From NCBI GenBank assembly GCA_902470695.1, contig CABRHH010000008.1:8808-72807 (forward strand): a stretch of 64,000 nucleotides of DNA. The letters run 5' to 3'. Shown one piece after another: positions 12,845 through 20,300 of the stretch (positions are counted from its first letter, which is position 1; the number at the start of each line of letters is the position of its first letter). Position numbers and translations under genes: made by a program. The stretch comes from an uncultured Collinsella sp. Lineage in GTDB: Bacteria; Actinomycetota; Coriobacteriia; Coriobacteriales; Coriobacteriaceae. The notes under the pieces are model-generated. The model was not told the DNA's origin. It worked only from the letters and a program-made list of their open reading frames with translations, and did no database searches.

Positions 12845-14161
12845 TTAACACCGCGCCGCCTGCGCCACGCGCGCCAACACGATGCGCGGGCGATCCGCCA
12901 GGTCGCGCACCACATGCACGTCGACCATGCCCGCCGTGCGACACAGTTCTGCCGCCTCGTCCAAATGCCCCTCGAACAGCTCGCAGGCAAGCAACCCCCC
13001 GGAGCGCAGCATGGCCGGAGCAGCCCTCACCAAGCGGCGGAATATGTCGAGCCCGTCGTCGCCTCCGTCAAGTGCCAGCGACGGCTCGAAATCCACCACC
13101 TCATGCGGAAGCTCCCGCATGACCGCGTGGGGGATGTAGGGCGGGTTCGAAACCAGCACGTCGAAGGTGCCCCACTCCGTCTCGCGGTCGAGCGGCGACA
13201 CCAGATTGCCCAGGCGGATATCAACCGCCTTCGCGTCGATACCCAGCGCCGCACGGTTCTTCTGCGCGAGCGCCACGGCCCGCGGCTCGATATCGGTCGC
13301 CACGCACACAACCTTGCCCGAGCGCTCATGGGCAAGCGACAGCGAGATGCACCCCGTACCGCACCCAACCTCCAGCACACGCGCGCAAGCCCCCGGCGCC
13401 ATCTCTGCGGGCTCGAATCCATCCGCGCCCGCAACGGTATCCCGATCACCTGCCGCATCGCCACTTCGCGTCTCGCCAACAACAGGGGCATCGCCCGCCA
13501 TCAACCCGGCATCATCACCGGCGGCATCGTCCGACGCATACCCCGTGGCGCGAGCGACATCGCCATCCGCGTCCGCAGGCCGCGCACAGCCATCGCCCAA
13601 CCCCCGCGCAGCGTCATCCCGACCAGCGCCAGCCTCGGATTCGATGACGCCATCAGCCGTGTTCCCGGCATTGCCCTCGGCACCGTCACCGCCCCCGGTA
13701 GCCCCCTCGCCGCGGCCAGCGCGCGCCGCTTCCTCCGCACGACGGGCGGCCTCCACCTCGCTGTTCCACGGCAGCTCAACGCGCGGACGAGCCGTCGCAG
13801 GCGCGCCCAGCACCTCGCCGTCGAGGAACTTCAGCACTTCCTCAACCAGCAGCTCTGTCTCAGGACGAGGGATGAGCACCCCGGGCTCACAGGCCACATC
13901 GATCATGCGAAAGCTCGTCTGCCCCACGATATACTGCAGCGGCTCGCCCTTCGCACGCCGCACCACCGCCGCGTGCATGGCAGCCAACTCCTCTTGAGCC
14001 AGGGGTTTATCGAAACTCATATACAGTTCGGTGCGCGTCAGCCCGGTCACGTTCGACAGCAGCCACTCAGCCGAAAGCCGCGGGCGCTCATCGCCCTTGT
14101 CCCCCAGATATTCACGCGTCCAATCCAGGCAGCGCTTGATGGTCCAGATCTCATTCGACAT
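12845..14161 (-). CDS. prmC: Release factor glutamine methyltransferase (HemK/PrmC) with a large internal insertion
   Basis: RRAKGEPLQYI, VLIPRPETE, SAM motif LEVGCGTG, NPPY and ALDGG; lies downstream of prfA. Start MSNEIWT at 14161. Confidence 0.92.
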   Translation of the reverse strand: MSNEIWTIKRCLDWTREYLGDKGDERPRLSAEWLLSNVTGLTRTELYMSFDKPLAQEELAAMHAAVVRRAKGEPLQYIVGQTSFRMIDVACEPGVLIPRPETELLVEEVLKFLDGEVLGAPATARPRVELPWNSEVEAARRAEEAARAGRGEGATGGGDGAEGNAGNTADGVIESEAGAGRDDAARGLGDGCARPADADGDVARATGYASDDAAGDDAGLMAGDAPVVGETRSGDAAGDRDTVAGADGFEPAEMAPGACARVLEVGCGTGCISLSLAHERSGKVVCVATDIEPRAVALAQKNRAALGIDAKAVDIRLGNLVSPLDRETEWGTFDVLVSNPPYIPHAVMRELPHEVVDFEPSLALDGGDDGLDIFRRLVRAAPAMLRSGGLLACELFEGHLDEAAELCRTAGMVDVHVVRDLADRPRIVLARVAQAARC

Positions 14162-14733
14162 GGCGGCTCCGTTTCCCGTGTTGCTCGAAAGCGATTCTAC
14201 GGCACCCGATGCGCGCCTATCTCGACAACGCCGTTTTACGCGCTTTCCGGTCCAAATTAAACGCTCGGTAAACAGCACCGCGCGCAACCTTACCGCCAGC
14301 TTGCCGGCGGGCCGGGCCCGCCCCAACAATCAACTTGCCGCGCATCTGGCCCCGCCCCAACATTCGACCTACCGCTCGGTCGCCTCGCTCCAACAGCCAG
14401 CTGGTTCCAGACTCGACGCCGCGCTGCACCGCGCTCTATCAAGTCGCCAAATCCTAGACCGTCACCTCTCGCCATTACTCGCACTCCAGCCCACCCGTCG
14501 ATGCCGCCACAACAACCCCCAAACAGCAAAACCGCGCACCTCGAAACACGAGATGCGCGGTGCTTCAGCGGCTCTTCGAGCGCGACGCCTTGACGACTGG
14601 ATACGAGCGGCTTCTTCTACAAACCCGCACGCATGTGCGGGGCGAGCGAACCGGCTCCTTCCACAGACCCTCTCGCACGCGCGAGGCAATCAGACCGGCT
14701 CCCTACAGGCCTGCGCACACGGGACGGTCAAAC

Positions 14734-15801
14734 TCACACCGTTGCGGCGAGCTTGGCCGCACGGTCGGCGGCGGCGAGCGCGTCGATCACGCTGCTGAGC
14801 TGATCGCCCAGAAGCACGCTGTTGTAGGTGGAGTTGAACCCGATACGGTGGTCGGTCACACGGTCCTGCGGCTGGTTGTACGTACGGATCTTCTCCGAGC
14901 GGTTGCCGTGCCCGATCTGCGCGGAGCGCTCGGCGCCCAGCTCGGCCTGCTGGCGCTCGAGCTCCATCTCGTACAGGCGCGCACGCAGCATCTGCATGCA
15001 GACTTCGCGGTTCTGAATCTGGGAGCGCTGCTCCTGGGACTGCACCACGGTGTTCGTGGGCAGGTGGGTGATGCGCACCGCCGAGTAGGTGGTGTTCACG
15101 CACTGGCCGCCGGGGCCCGAAGCGCAGTAGGTGTCGATGCGCAGGTCGGACTGGTTGATCTGGATGTCGATCTCGTCGGCCTCGGGCAGAACGGCCACGG
15201 TGGCCGTGGATGTCTGGATGCGGCCCTGGCTTTCGGTTTTGGGCACGCGCTGCACGCGGTGGACGCCCGACTCATATTTCATGACCGAGTAGACCTTGTC
15301 TCCCTCGACTTTGAACTCGATGGATTTGAAGCCGCCGGCCTCGGAGGGGCTGGAATCGAGCACCGTCATCTTCCACTTCTTGGACTCGATGAAGCGCTGG
15401 TACATCTTGAACAGGTCGCCCGCGAAGATAGCCGCCTCGTCGCCGCCGGCGGCGGAGCGGATCTCCACGATGGTGTTCTTCTCATCCATCGGGTCGCCCG
15501 GGATGAGCATGATCTTGATGTCCTCCTCGAGCTGAGGCAGCTTGGCCTCGTTCTCGGAAATGTCCATCTGGAGCATCTCCTTCTCCTCGGGGTCGGAGGT
15601 ATCGTGCAGCATCTCCTTGGCGGCCTCGATGTCATCGAGGGCGGCGATGTACTCGCGCGCGGCGTTCACCAGGTCGGTCTGGTGCGCGTACTCCTTGTTG
15701 AGACGCGTGAATTCCTTGATGTCGCTCGCAACGGAGGGATCCGAGAGCTTCTTCTCGAGCTCCTGATAGGCGATGATGAGTTTTTCCAGCTTGTCGCGCA
15801 T
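14734..15801 (-). CDS. prfA: Peptide chain release factor 1
   Basis: RF1 PxT motif (VQRVPKTES), GPGGQ, ESGVHR and RTYN; AAGGAG RBS. Confidence 0.98.
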   Translation of the reverse strand: MRDKLEKLIIAYQELEKKLSDPSVASDIKEFTRLNKEYAHQTDLVNAAREYIAALDDIEAAKEMLHDTSDPEEKEMLQMDISENEAKLPQLEEDIKIMLIPGDPMDEKNTIVEIRSAAGGDEAAIFAGDLFKMYQRFIESKKWKMTVLDSSPSEAGGFKSIEFKVEGDKVYSVMKYESGVHRVQRVPKTESQGRIQTSTATVAVLPEADEIDIQINQSDLRIDTYCASGPGGQCVNTTYSAVRITHLPTNTVVQSQEQRSQIQNREVCMQMLRARLYEMELERQQAELGAERSAQIGHGNRSEKIRTYNQPQDRVTDHRIGFNSTYNSVLLGDQLSSVIDALAAADRAAKLAATV

Positions 15802-15914
15802 GGCAATGCTCCTTATTCATGATGCGATAGAGGGGCCGCGGACGCAGGCGCGGCGCGGCATGATGAGAGGGCGCCGGGGCCGCAAGGGCTCGCCGGCGAA
15901 AACGGCTATCGTAG

Positions 15915-15941
15915 CTAGAGCTTATCAAGCGCGATGAACAT
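15915..15941 (-). CDS. Putative prfA leader peptide MFIALDKL (UAG stop)
   Basis: AGGGAGG RBS 4 nt before ATG 15941; TATCAT -10-like box at 15973-15968; stop TAG at 15917-15915 and a second in-frame TAG at 15908-15906. Confidence 0.6.
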   Translation of the reverse strand: MFIALDKL

Positions 15942-16374
15942 GGTTCCTCCCTGTTGTGCTGGAAGCTATGATACCCAACCCCGGGGCTGCGGCAAACACC
16001 CCGGCAAAACGGACATATCGACAGGCATCTCGGCGAAATGCCGAATAGAAGCGCGGAGGGACGGGGCGGACCGATGTTGGTCGGGAGCCGGAAAGGAGAT
16101 GCGCCGCTGCTGGCCGGGAGCCGAAAGGAGATGCGCCGGTGCTGGCCGGACTGCCCGGTGGCAAAGCTGCCTGCGGAGCGGGTTGGGGCAGGTCGGGAGA
16201 TGCGCCGGCGTGGGATGGGGGGATGCGGTGGTGGCGGGATGGGGGGTGTGGCGGCGGGACCGGGCCGGAACGGGCGGCAGCAGGACCGGGTCCGGAACGG
16301 GCGGCAGCAGAACGAGGCCGGAACGGGTGGTGGCGGGGCGGAGCCGGAACGGAAGCCGCGAGGCCGAACAGCGC

Positions 16375-16561
16375 ACTGTCAGCTGTGTACGATTGTCAGC
16401 TGTGCACGATTGTCAGCTATGTACGATTTGTTAGCGCTGCCATCGAAAGCTGATACATTCCTGAGTTCCATATAGCTAATCTACCTGGTATTTCTACGAT
16501 ATTCATATGCAGAAAGACGTATGTGTTTTGCCATACCTGACAATCGTACACAGCTGACAGT
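16375..16561. repeat. MITE-like element with a 25-bp perfect TIR and 17-bp tandem iterons
   Basis: ACTGTCAGCTGTGTACGATTGTCAG at 16375-16399 is inverted at 16537-16561; three 17-bp units span 16377-16427; the interior is AT-rich. Confidence 0.75.
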
Positions 16562-16774
16562 CACCCGTGCACGACAGGCTCGACGCCTGCGGGCGTTAGA
16601 CCTCAGTGGCACCGTCGGTGCCAGCACCTCCACGCGTATCGGCATCCCCATGCGCACCGCCATCGCCAGCATGTCCGTTGCGGCTGACGCGGGCGACGGC
16701 GCCCGAACCGCTGCGCAGGCCATCGCCCCCGTCCGCGCTACCGTCGTCATCACATCGACGCCGCCCTCATCACC

Positions 16775-17167
16775 TCAAGCGGAGCCGCCAGCGCCCCCGT
16801 CGCCATCGCCGCAGGCGGTCTCATCGGGGCAGGCTATCTCCAGGATATTCGTCTCGCTGCCCTGCAGCAGGTAGGTGCGGTCGCTGCCGCAGTGCGGACA
16901 GACGCGCCCGTGCTCGACCGTGACGTAGGTCCGTCCGCATGCCTCGCACAACGTCACGGCGTCGACCCGCTCGATCACCAGCTCGGCGCCGCGCATCAGG
17001 TCGTTTTTCGCGCATGCCCAGGTCCAGCAGTCGGTGAGGTAGCTGGGGATGATGCCCGACACCTCTCCCAGCTCCAGCGTGACCGACGACACGCGACGCA
17101 ACCCGTTTTCGGCGGCAACGCGCTCCACGCTACGGATGATATGAAATACAATACCCAGTTCGTGCAT
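16775..17167 (-). CDS. hypA: Nickel metallochaperone HypA
   Basis: N-terminal MHE Ni-binding motif, LELGEVSG and two CxxC (CEAC, CPHC). Confidence 0.92.
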   Translation of the reverse strand: MHELGIVFHIIRSVERVAAENGLRRVSSVTLELGEVSGIIPSYLTDCWTWACAKNDLMRGAELVIERVDAVTLCEACGRTYVTVEHGRVCPHCGSDRTYLLQGSETNILEIACPDETACGDGDGGAGGSA

Positions 17168-17522
17168 ACCGTTCCCATCGTCATTCAACAGAGCGCGGCC
17201 TCCTGCCGGCGCGAACAGGCAATCGCCCGCACGCCCAGCACCGCATTCGCGCGCCGAGGCGCCTGCCTCGGATGCGAGCAACTGAGGTCGAAGGCGGCCG
17301 CTCGCACGGAACGGGGAGACAACCGACCTGCCGCCCGTCGCCTCCCCGCCAAAGGCCAAGGCCAGACGGCCAACGGCCAAGGCCGAAAGCCAAAGGCCGA
17401 ATACCGAGAACCGAGGGCCAGCCGCCAGGGGCGAGAAGTCCAGCGCCGGCACCGGCACCAGCGCCCAGCGACAAACACCGGGCGCCAGCGGCCAGCAGCC
17501 CAAAGCCAAAAGCCGAGACGAC

Positions 17523-20300
17523 CTACTTCGCCCCCTTCTTCCCGAAGCGGATCTTGATCTCGCGCTTGAGCGCGTACTTGGCCAGCATCGGCAGCTTCTT
17601 CTCGTACTTCACCATGCGCGAGCACTCCGGATGCTCCCGGTGCAGATGAATCGCGTCGAACGCGCACTTCGTGGTGCACAGGCCGCAGCCGATGCACTTG
17701 TTCTCGTCCACCACGCTCGCACCGCACCCCAGGCAGCGCGCGGTCTCGCGGCGCACCTGCTCCTCGCTGAACGTCTCCGCATACTCCGCGAACGGACCAC
17801 CCGCCTCCTCGCTGCTGCGGTGAGCCGGCGTCTCGCGCCGGGCGGTATCGTAGCTGCCGAACGCCACGGCCTCGCGGTCGATGGCGCGGTAGGAGCGTTG
17901 ATTGCGCCCGATGGTGAGCGTGGCGCCGCGCACGAAGCGATGCAGCGAGACGGCCGCCTCATGGCCGGCGGCAATCGCGTCGATCGCGAACGACGGCCCG
18001 GTGTAGACGTCACCGCCCACAAAGATGTCGGGCTCCGCGGTCTGATAGGTCTGTGCGTCGGCCACCGCGCCGCCGCCCCGCCCAAACGCAACCGCCGTGC
18101 CCGCCAGCAGGTTGTCCCACTCGATGCACTGCCCGATGGAGAACACCACGCGGTCGCACGCCACCGTGCGCGTCTGCGCGTCGTCGAACACCGGGGCGAA
18201 TCTGCCCTCGTCGTCGAACACCCGCAGGCAGCGGCGGAACACGATGCCCGCCACCCGGCCGCCTTCCACAACGACCTCGACAGGCCCCCAGCCGTTGTGG
18301 ACGCAGGCGCCGTCGGCCTCCGCCTCCTCGATCTCCTCGGCGCTCGCCGGCATCTCCCCGGCGCTCTCCAGGCAGAACATCTCAACGCCGTCCGACCCCA
18401 AGCGTGCTGCCGAGCGCGCCGCATCGATGGCGACATTGCCGCCGCCCACCACGACCGTCCGGCCCCGCAGGCCGTCGAAGCCGTCCTCGGCGCAGGTGCG
18501 CAGGAAGTCCACCGCCGTGAACACACCCTCGGCATCCTCGCCCGCAATGCCGGGCAAGCGCCCGCCCTGGCAGCCGATCGCCACGTAGAACGCGCTGAAT
18601 CCCTGCTCGCGCAGCTCGGCGATCGTCACATCGCGCCCCACCTCGACACCGTAGCGGAACTCCGCCCCCATCTGGGCGATGATGTCCACCTCGGCCTCGA
18701 TCACGCGCTTGTCCAGCTTGTAGCTGGGAATGCCGTAGGTGAGCATGCCGCCCGGGCGCGCGCTCTTCTCGAACACCACGGGCTTGTAGCCGCGCTCGGC
18801 CAGGTAGTACGCGCAGGACAGACCCGCCGGACCCGCGCCGATGATGGCGATCTTCTCGTTCATCGCACCGCTGGTGGAGGGCACCACGGGCTCGGGCACG
18901 TAGCGATGCTCGGCCACCAGATCCTGCTCGGCGATGAACTTCTTCACCTCGTCGATGGCCACAGCAGCGTCAACCGCGCCGCGCGTGCAGGCATCCTCGC
19001 AACGACGGTTGCAGATGCGCCCGCACACCGCCGGCAGCGGGTTTTCGCGCTTGATGAGGGCCAGCGCGTCGCGATAGCGCCCCTGGGCCGCCAGCTTGAG
19101 GTAGCCCTGCACCGCCACATGTGCCGGACAGGCCGTCTTGCAGGGCGCGGTGCCGGTGTCGTAGGTCTCGATGCGGTTCTTGTTGCGGTAGTCGGGGCTC
19201 CACTTCTCCGGCCCCCACTTCACCGCATCGGGCAGTTCCTGCTTGGAATAGCTGGGGACCTCACCGGTACGCGCGTCGCACAGCTTCTGGCCGAGCTTCA
19301 CCGCGCCGGCCGGGCACACCTCGACGCAGCGGCCACACGCCACGCAGGCGTCCGCCTCGGTGCGCGCCACGTAGGCCGAGCGCGACAGGTTCGGCGTGTT
19401 GAACAGCTGCGAGGTGCGCAGTGCATAGCACACGTTGACGTTGCAGTTACAGATGGCGAAGATCTTGTCCTCGCCGTCGATGTTGGTGATCTGGTGCACG
19501 AAGCCGTTGTCCTCGGCGCGATGCAGGATCTCGTAGACCTCCTCGCGCGTGATGTAGCGGCCGCGGTCGGTTTCCACCACGTAGTCGGCCATGTCGCCCA
19601 CCGCGATGCACCAGTCGGCCGGGTCGTCGCCGCAGCCCTGGCCCAGCACCTCGCGGCTCATGCGGCACGAGCAGGCGCTCGCGGCGTACTTGCCGTCGTA
19701 TTTGTCCAGCCAGTGCTCGATGTGCTCGATCGACACGGAGCGGTCCTCCATGGAGATGGCCTGCTCCACCGGAATCACGTGCATGCCGATGCCCGCACCT
19801 CCCGGCGGCACCATGGGCGTGGCGCGCGCCAGGGCACCCTTGCTGGCCTGCTCGAAGAACTTCGCCAGCACCGGGTGCTCCTGCAGCTGGCTCATACGCA
19901 TGTTGAGGAACTCGGCCGAACCGGGCACCAGCATGGGCAGGACCCACTGCTTGGTGCGGGTCTCGTTCTCCCAGTTGTACTCGATGAGGCCGATGTAGCT
20001 CATCTCGTCCATCAGCTTCTCGAGCGCCACCGGGTCCATGCCGGTGAGCTTGATGAGCTCGGTCAGCGTGTAGGGGCGACGCATCTTCATCTTGAGCAGG
20101 ACGTCGGCCATTTCGTCGGTGGTGACGGCGGCAAACGACCAGTATTCGAACGGCTTGAGCTCCTTGCGACCGAGCATGCGGTTGGTGCAGTGCTCGCACA
20201 GGGCCACGATCTTCTCGCGCGGCTGGGCGGGCAGCTCGGGCACGAACTCCGCGCCGATGTCAGGCTCGGTAAAGGAGATGCCAGGTCCGTTGACGATCAT
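17523..20300 (-). CDS. Multidomain FAD/NAD(P)-dependent Fe-S oxidoreductase (Cys-rich N-domain + ferredoxin + GltD-like module + ferredoxin)
   Basis: CVACGRCVEVCP; APCKTACP, CGRICNRRCEDAC; GAGPAG, GGGNVA; C-terminal RCLGC and CIGCGLCTTKC. GAAAGGA RBS before ATG 20300. Confidence 0.9.
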   Translation of the reverse strand: MIVNGPGISFTEPDIGAEFVPELPAQPREKIVALCEHCTNRMLGRKELKPFEYWSFAAVTTDEMADVLLKMKMRRPYTLTELIKLTGMDPVALEKLMDEMSYIGLIEYNWENETRTKQWVLPMLVPGSAEFLNMRMSQLQEHPVLAKFFEQASKGALARATPMVPPGGAGIGMHVIPVEQAISMEDRSVSIEHIEHWLDKYDGKYAASACSCRMSREVLGQGCGDDPADWCIAVGDMADYVVETDRGRYITREEVYEILHRAEDNGFVHQITNIDGEDKIFAICNCNVNVCYALRTSQLFNTPNLSRSAYVARTEADACVACGRCVEVCPAGAVKLGQKLCDARTGEVPSYSKQELPDAVKWGPEKWSPDYRNKNRIETYDTGTAPCKTACPAHVAVQGYLKLAAQGRYRDALALIKRENPLPAVCGRICNRRCEDACTRGAVDAAVAIDEVKKFIAEQDLVAEHRYVPEPVVPSTSGAMNEKIAIIGAGPAGLSCAYYLAERGYKPVVFEKSARPGGMLTYGIPSYKLDKRVIEAEVDIIAQMGAEFRYGVEVGRDVTIAELREQGFSAFYVAIGCQGGRLPGIAGEDAEGVFTAVDFLRTCAEDGFDGLRGRTVVVGGGNVAIDAARSAARLGSDGVEMFCLESAGEMPASAEEIEEAEADGACVHNGWGPVEVVVEGGRVAGIVFRRCLRVFDDEGRFAPVFDDAQTRTVACDRVVFSIGQCIEWDNLLAGTAVAFGRGGGAVADAQTYQTAEPDIFVGGDVYTGPSFAIDAIAAGHEAAVSLHRFVRGATLTIGRNQRSYRAIDREAVAFGSYDTARRETPAHRSSEEAGGPFAEYAETFSEEQVRRETARCLGCGASVVDENKCIGCGLCTTKCAFDAIHLHREHPECSRMVKYEKKLPMLAKYALKREIKIRFGKKGAK

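Follow-up and report, generated by a model that had tools for sequence, protein, structure and literature searches.

The window analysed here, a stretch of 64,000 nucleotides (nt) from an uncultured Collinsella sp. (GenBank assembly GCA_902470695.1, contig CABRHH010000008.1, positions 8,808 to 72,807), carries on its minus strand prfA, the gene for release factor 1 (RF1), and our analysis concerns the leader of that gene, in particular an upstream open reading frame (uORF) of eight codons that ends in UAG. The prfA gene (14734-15801 of the window, ATG at 15801) is a single open frame of 355 codons whose 355-residue product matches the Pfam families PCRF (3.3e-72) and RF-1 (8.4e-41) and has PKT at the RF1 tripeptide position (RVQRVPKT motif); no internal stop occurs in any of the prfA matches. 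Read in the direction of transcription, the leader holds the following features, all on the minus strand: a putative promoter made of a -35-like hexamer TTGCCG (15995-15990) placed 16 nt before a -10-like hexamer TATCAT (15973-15968); a Shine-Dalgarno (SD) sequence AGGGAGG (15952-15946); the uORF, ATG TTC ATC GCG CTT GAT AAG CTC TAG (15941-15915), which encodes MFIALDKL; and a C at +4 after its stop (15914), giving the tetranucleotide UAG-C (15917-15914). The two hexamers together match 9 of 12 consensus positions and are the sole sigma-70-like pair found by a consensus scan of 15600-16900 (1 found vs 0.3 expected), and the prfA leader transcript is predicted to start about 7 nt downstream of TATCAT. 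A second in-frame UAG follows two codons past the first (CTA CGA TAG, the stop at 15908-15906), and the translation of 15941-15813 runs from MFIALDKL, stop, through LR, stop, to 30 open codons and a TAA (15815-15813) within TAAGGAG, where a T precedes the prfA SD AAGGAGC (15814-15808). With AAGGAG 7 nt ahead of the ATG, this latter site is strong, not suboptimal. The spacer from the uORF stop to prfA (15913-15802) is GC-rich (C 0.41, G 0.27) and contains CUAUCG (15830-15825). All of this was confirmed on re-reading the minus strand, and agrees with an earlier note on this DNA which had described the same anatomy and taken it for a candidate RF1 autoregulatory leader.

The regions upstream of prfA were sampled irrespective of the uORF: 22 Collinsella loci and 8 loci of other families in the order, followed within the family by the 15 closest relatives by prfA and by 29 genomes from five other genera. 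A second collection comprised 80 prfA loci, and separately 8 more genomes of other families were taken in, for 16 genomes and 12 other families in all. Every one of the 66 Coriobacteriaceae loci (6 genera) has an eight-codon ORF whose end reads x-D-[K/M]-[L/F]-stop, followed by C at +4; 64 of them stop with TAG and 2 with TAA (L047 of G058 and L071 of G043). The second collection yielded the uORF in 61 of its 80 loci, among them entries labelled Enorma, Parolsenella and Paratractidigestivibacter, always with TAG-C, so that both collections pooled show TAG in 125 of 127 uORF-carrying loci. L047 differs at the base in question from its near-identical sister L046, and its change from TAG to TAA is therefore recent. 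Alignment across relatives thus bears out what the earlier note had supposed, namely a dedicated short ORF ahead of prfA, with its own ribosome-binding site and with a stop that is specifically UAG. A degenerate pattern of the uORF (start-N12-GAYAWRYTCTAGC) has one match in the 2.62-Mb genome, at this place, and none in a reversed control. The spacer varies in length from 59 to 252 nt in the relatives, and its sequence is poorly conserved.

Outside these genera the picture is different. None of the 16 genomes from the 12 other families has the uORF, and when any SD-preceded short ORF ending in TAG ahead of prfA was allowed, these 16 genomes gave only one, in L158: 16 codons long, with a TTG start and an end 269 nt upstream of prfA. 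The 19 loci of the second collection that lack the uORF are all labelled Atopobium or Atopobiaceae. In the region about 90-130 nt ahead of prfA, these 19 loci (L101-L119) keep a box resembling AGGGAGG, in L101 AGCGAGG, and some 20 nt further on GCC TAG; no in-frame ATG, GTG or TTG lies ahead of that GCC TAG in any of them, and the box with its GCC TAG may be a remnant of a leader ORF.

For the tree analyses we used the 109 loci with complete data, of which 100 are unique, and counted changes by parsimony on a tree of prfA coding sequences. In the 100 unique loci the uORF always has eight codons, starts with ATG (95) or GTG (5) and encodes 28 distinct peptides, all with Asp at codon 6, K or M at codon 7 and L or F at codon 8. 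Its SD is present throughout: duplexes of the window from -18 to -4 with a generic anti-SD come to -4.5 kcal/mol or lower in 100 of 100 loci, with a mean of -6.8 kcal/mol compared to -0.6 for windows in the spacer. No change at all was counted at positions 2-3 of the start codon, the GA of the Asp codon, the A of codon 7, the middle U of codon 8, the UA of the stop and the C at +4. The third bases of codon 7 and of codon 8 changed once each, and the third base of the stop twice, both times from G to A (TAG to TAA). The remaining sites are freer: 9 changes at the third base of the Asp codon (synonymous GAT/GAC), 8 at the second base of codon 7 (where AAG/AAA, also synonymous, is variable too), 14 at the first base of codon 8, and 7-27 at sites flanking the uORF. 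From this we infer that the uORF is translated. An untranslated RNA motif merely resembling an ORF would account for the conservation of codons 6-8, stop and +4 base at the nucleotide level; we hold it to be highly improbable, given that SD, start codon and frame are kept in all 100 loci while codons 2-4 vary freely, and that the 27 nt have no indels next to a spacer that is rich in them and aligns poorly. Nor did the block match an Rfam family: a search of 14500-18000 (3.5 kb, E up to 5) returned only a chance-level match of 14.5 bits to a snoRNA model with a gathering score of 45.

The stop codon at the end of prfA served as control. In 97 of the same genomes its identity changed 22 times (TAA 52, TAG 39, TGA 6), compared to the two changes of the uORF stop, and its +4 base changed 31 times. 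Ordinary stops thus turn over freely in this family, whereas the UAG-C of the uORF does not, and in the sequence comparison both the UAG and the C at +4 prove to be selectively retained. This contrast bears on a constitutive reading of the element, in which the uORF would do no more than open a structured prfA start or stabilise the mRNA, with UAG-C kept for RNA-level reasons or by a preference for TAG, and no feedback at all. TAG is indeed the most frequent stop of this genome (GC 64.9%), ending 570 (about 46%) of 1244 heuristically called ORFs of at least 250 amino acids, with TGA in 397 and TAA in 277. The near-invariance of the UC before the uORF stop (1 change), although synonymous Leu codons were free to be used, also suggests a constraint at the nucleotide level, and pairing of the uORF with the prfA start recurs in many lineages (see below). 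Against it, the 22 changes at the stop of prfA mean that a TAG preference does not fix stops in these genomes and cannot explain the contrast between the two stops, and three RNAalifold runs found no conserved pairing partner for UAGC. We regard a purely constitutive role as unlikely.

The reading that we put forward, and to which we would give an even chance, is that the uORF is a translated leader of eight codons at the 5' end of the prfA (or prfA-prmC) transcript and serves as a dwell-time sensor for the activity of RF1. Ribosomes would load on the strong uORF SD, translate eight codons and then need release at UAG-C, a stop normally read by RF1 only and in a context that the literature calls weak. 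Since the uORF is so short, its occupancy would be set mainly by the time that release takes. As long as no ribosome is on it, the uORF RNA would pair with the prfA ribosome-binding site, in this genome by way of codons 3-8, which would bind the SD GGAGC as well as AUG-CGCGA; once a ribosome occupies the uORF, this pairing would be kept open and a second ribosome could start on prfA. Scarce RF1 would then prolong the dwell, keep the prfA start open and raise RF1 synthesis, and plentiful RF1 would do the reverse. Slow release at UAG-C and the feedback itself we infer; the sensing principle is plausible, in that PMC2680264 describes the UAGC ahead of enteric prfA as a weak signal for termination, and PMC5373646 reports that longer occupancy of a stop codon alters leader-controlled expression in E. 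coli. A position close to the promoter is common in the family: 93 of the 100 unique loci have a TATAAT match of at least 5/6 at a distance of 23-31 or 42-48 nt ahead of the uORF ATG.

The predicted folds of this genome and its clade are consistent with such a scheme. Both the minimum free energy (MFE) and the centroid fold place a uORF segment reaching from codon 3 to the U of UAG (15934-15917) against the SD and start codon of prfA: UCGCGC (15934-15929) with GCGCGA (15799-15794), and GCUCU (15921-15917) with GGAGC (15812-15808) of the SD. The earlier note had pointed out that CGAUAG at the second stop (15911-15906) can pair with CUAUCG just ahead of the SD; both are present and could pair, but neither fold uses them, the uORF being paired with the prfA SD and start instead. 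The duplex of uORF and prfA start comes to -20.8 kcal/mol, compared to -12.0 for shuffled uORFs (p=0.006). Over the ensemble, opening the SD and start of prfA would cost 11.3 kcal/mol in free RNA. A 31-nt ribosome footprint brings this to 6.3-7.6 (some 4 lower) as long as its P site falls on uORF codon positions 1-10; moved further downstream, it gives 9.7-13.1. Four relatives of the clade behave alike under the footprint, one of them weakly. RNAalifold, run on 10 clade members, proposes the same long-range helix unprompted, and a helix from the uORF to the prfA start comes up unprompted in three clade alignments in all. The 10-member alignment contains one compensatory change from a GC to an AU pair, in which uORF codon 4 and, synonymously, prfA codon 2 have both changed; 92% of its cells pair, compared to 2-56% when the partner is slid, and its covariation score was reached by 13 of 500 shuffles. 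Across the family we tested 33 representatives, hand-picked from the 62 unique leaders as one per peptide-and-spacer type, and in 17 of these 33 the uORF pairs with the start better than shuffled uORFs do (p<0.05). The pairing, and its opening by a ribosome in the clade of this genome, are thus predicted only, by folding models.

A number of observations weigh against the sensor as we have drawn it, and the first of these concern the RNA. Many lineages with D-M-F/L peptides pair GCGCAUG at the uORF start with CAUGCGC at the prfA start instead, in a helix of 7 invariant pairs that has no covariation and would lie outside the reach of a ribosome at the stop. For the large C. aerofaciens-like cluster the prediction leaves the prfA start about 60% unpaired and gives it no pairing with the uORF. 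When a footprint is placed at the stop, opening becomes cheaper by at least 2 kcal/mol in only 12 of the 62 unique leaders and dearer by at least 1 kcal/mol in 13, and on these costs we rejected opening of the prfA start by a stalled ribosome as a universal rule. The leader of this genome, moreover, folds no better than its shuffles (z = -1.18). As to the stop, UAG is not absolute, two loci having UAA; the prior for TAG is not small, TAG being the commonest stop and TAGC common (216 of the long ORFs); and the label of weak context for UAGC is borrowed from E. coli. The RF2 of these organisms adds a further point. In this genome it has SPT (residues 211-213; L164 559-1701, G000 contig C37) where, by alignment, solved RF2 structures have SPF, and SPT occurs in all 30 prfB loci sampled across the order, so that, to judge from sequence, UAG may not be strictly an RF1 codon here. 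The change from SPF to SPT is said to abolish RF2 termination activity in the available part of PMC6881298, and the uORF's marked choice of UAG over UAA is an argument that these organisms read the two codons differently. Finally, in what is available of PMC12421855, overexpression of RF1 is only mildly harmful in B. subtilis, and its authors argue that tight RF1 autoregulation is not needed.

In the C. aerofaciens-like cluster RNAalifold places a helix between uORF codons 3-7 and a segment of the spacer. A helix of uORF codons 5-7 with the spacer (CAUGUCGAA-like, 27-39 nt before the prfA ATG) was examined as a general feature, with compensatory changes that are apparent by eye (TTT:AAA, CTT:AAG and AAG:CTT vs ATG:CAT). 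This duplex beats shuffled spacers (p<0.05) in only 8 of the 62 unique leaders, and a comparison of own with swapped uORFs in 36 representatives gave a weak effect (7.74 vs 7.41, p=0.013); it was rejected as a general feature and kept as one of a clade.

An output at the level of the transcript has to be weighed as well. RF1 would still be sensed, and a ribosome held at UAG-C would either block Rho loading on the C-rich spacer, in the manner of tnaC or speFL, or shield the 5' end of the mRNA from RNase J, so that low RF1 would lead to more full-length prfA mRNA and not to a more open start. No specific downstream pairing would be needed, which suits the poorly conserved spacer and the clades that have no predicted masking of the prfA start; most leaders have a spacer with much C and little G (C 0.27-0.47, G 0.19-0.35), some 20-40 nt separate the uORF from the predicted 5' end, and the genome encodes both rho (an open frame of 795 amino acids) and RNase J. 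On the other side, 15600-16900 holds 0 terminator-like sites, and the spacers are predicted to be strongly structured, which makes them poor rut sites. We think this version improbable, if worth keeping in view.

The fixed length of eight codons and the conserved end of the peptide (Asp invariant, then K/M and L/F over the 28 peptides) would also suit an arrest peptide, in which a small molecule or an inhibitor of translation would make x-D-[K/M]-[L/F] stall the ribosome at the stop, as in TnaC, SpeFL or the macrolide leaders, and the RF1 level is not the signal; some eight codons are typical of drug-sensing leaders. There is no logic, however, that ties a metabolite to prfA-prmC, and the strict use of UAG over UAA together with the C at +4 points to the release step. 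RNA pairing accounts for part of the sequence conservation, and the idea overlaps with the dwell-time sensor, in that the peptide may simply slow the release catalysed by RF1. As a separate explanation we rate it very unlikely.

The second stop and the long read-through frame had been central to the earlier note, according to which low RF1 would cause stalling or read-through at the two UAGs. In the read-through version, which is akin to the proposal made for enteric hemA-prfA, scarce RF1 would let the UAG be read through, and ribosomes would translate the spacer as far as the TAA within the prfA SD, terminate there and begin anew on prfA; the 30 codons open here from the second UAG to the TAA of TAAGGAG invite this view. 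In relatives neither feature turned out to be general. The second UAG is confined to this genome, a 99%-identical genome and, in similar tandem form, the L061/L129 lineage; a second stop of any kind (TAG, TAA or TGA) within three codons of the uORF stop was seen in 11 of 100 loci. In six other lineages the second stop, two or three codons past the UAG, is TAA or TGA; these are readable by RF2 and would block read-through. For the frame itself the spacers were grouped at 80% identity into 39 clusters (grouping at 65% merged nearly everything and was dropped; 75-85% was used instead). The next in-frame stop falls 6-22 nt before the prfA ATG in 11 of these clusters, within three codons in 8, elsewhere in the spacer in 5, and past the prfA start in 15; only 3 of these last are in frame with prfA and 12 are out of frame, and a read-through fusion to RF1 was rejected. 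Of the stop triplets that adjoin the SD, a modest excess lies in the frame of the uORF (15/27, p about 0.014, the clusters not being independent), and spacer length modulo 3 (15:12:12 across the 39 clusters) shows no frame preference. Read-through to the SD is thus a recurrent, not a general, arrangement. Frames that stay open until the first AT-rich stretch, such as the AT-richer ribosome-binding site, are moreover to be expected in DNA of 65% GC. Stalling at the UAG fits all lineages, and read-through does not; together with the strength of the prfA SD this leads us to consider read-through with reinitiation a rather improbable mechanism.

The enteric case counts against read-through as well. 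In the available part of PMC2680264, autocontrol of RF1 by read-through of the UAGC of hemA is reported as a proposal (Elliott 1989), and that model, when tested in E. coli, gave little RF1 (unpublished data cited there). The two systems share a UAG-C upstream of prfA as the proposed reporter of RF1 level. The hemA stop, however, ends a full-length enzyme gene, and the output would be read-through and reinitiation at a weak prfA SD, whereas here we find a dedicated, promoter-proximal mini-ORF, kept family-wide, ahead of a strong prfA SD.

Autoregulation of RF2 is a classic of translational control. Its gene prfB uses programmed +1 frameshifting at an in-frame UGA-C, whereby a low level of the factor slows termination and yields more factor. 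The leader of prfA is like it in that the supply of a release factor would be set at a stop codon which this same factor reads, with a C at +4. The prfB sensor stop, however, lies inside the coding sequence, with the frameshift taking place on a slippery CUU preceded by an internal SD. Here the stop ends a separate ORF 113 nt upstream, prfA is uninterrupted by any premature in-frame stop, and no frame relation is kept (3 of 39 clusters in frame with prfA); there is no slippery codon or internal SD just before the stop, the last uORF codon being CUC or UUC and the only SD lying about 30 nt upstream of the stop. The prfB of this genome (L164 505-1704) is itself one open frame without a programmed-frameshift stop. 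Its ATG overlaps the TAA of secA (TAATG; junction 557-561), which suggests, on this arrangement of the sequence, that prfB is translationally coupled to secA. An in-frame TAG inside prfB of one relative proved to be an artefact, situated outside the protein alignment.

Other leaders and release factors offer further parallels. In attenuation of the ermC type a short leader ORF with its own SD lies upstream of the regulated gene, as here, and a held ribosome disrupts a pairing that masks the downstream SD and start; such pairing is predicted for the clade of this genome, where a ribosome on the leader is also predicted to free the start, and in 17 of the 33 hand-picked leaders, and is not predicted in the largest clade. 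The erm leaders stall at sense codons with a macrolide bound, whereas the prfA leader would hold the ribosome at a stop codon, in response to the release factor made from the gene that follows. With the leader peptides TnaC and SpeFL, whose ribosomes are held at the stop codon of the leader itself, the prfA leader would share this arrest and the control of what lies downstream, and like them it has conserved residues near the C-terminus. Tryptophan or ornithine is the signal in those two, which work by way of Rho, whereas no ligand is implied for the prfA leader. Plant eRF1 is autoregulated by read-through and nonsense-mediated decay, as stated in the available part of PMC5397192; there, too, the level of a termination factor depends on how efficiently the factor's own message is terminated, but the system is eukaryotic and acts at the gene's own stop and 3' untranslated region, not at an upstream ORF.

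For prfA no comparable element seems to have been described. A full-text literature search, outside whose reach most subscription journals lie, found no description of a prfA leader ORF, and the available part of a 2025 survey of more than 12,000 genomes (PMC12421855) has autoregulation shown for prfB and not for prfA, reports no RF1 autoregulation by frameshifting and holds that RF1 may not need one. The proposed element combines two known kinds, namely autoregulation of a release factor through its own stop and attenuation by a leader ORF; the combination, the factor and the anatomy are new. Taken as a whole, the case that this is the RF1 counterpart of the prfB circuit, with an eight-codon ORF derived from a duplication of the prfA 5' end, an obligatory UAG-C, and an RF1-limited release time that would govern access to the start of prfA and so to prmC, stands in our estimate slightly better than even.

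The origin just mentioned is suggested by two resemblances. Codons 5-8 of the uORF (CTT GAT AAG CTC, LDKL) resemble codons 5-8 of prfA (CTG GAA AAA CTC, LEKL), and the promoter, SD and ATG of the uORF (window 15906-15985) align with those of prfA itself in a uORF-less genome from another family (L024 1446-1530). On these alignments the uORF probably arose by duplication of the 5' end of prfA followed by gain of a stop, which is the simplest origin.

Downstream of prfA on the same strand lies prmC, coding for the release-factor glutamine methyltransferase (12845-14329, minus strand; Pfam PrmC_N 1.5e-21, MTS 2.5e-12); these are the coordinates of the ORF, inside which the gene start may lie, and prfA and prmC are presumably co-transcribed. 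Contigs from RNA libraries account for small shares of the window. One of them, X5 (208 nt, 15779-15986, depth 2.5), covers the leader and the prfA start; it was rejected as transcript evidence, being shallow and extending beyond the predicted transcript start. Upstream, hypA is found about 970 nt from prfA, and the intergenic region between the two contains short repeats at 16071-16562: four of about 26-27 nt (16250-16363), two to three of 32 nt (16071-16218), and three of 17 nt (16377-16428) with an inverted copy at 16532-16562. These could be operator sites, iteron sites or a decayed small mobile element.

While RF2 autoregulation is textbook matter, RF1 has no established equivalent, and the conserved UAG-C mini-ORF makes self-sensing by RF1 directly testable. 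The setting is Collinsella, a gut genus, in a genome where UAG ends close to half of the long ORFs. If the proposed role is true, the leader would be a compact natural biosensor of RF1, of interest for work on amber suppression and recoding, and it would be an example of a regulatory leader born by duplication of a gene's own 5' end. For the organisms themselves, the conserved uORF with its UAG probably lets the cell tune the production of RF1 to the performance of termination.

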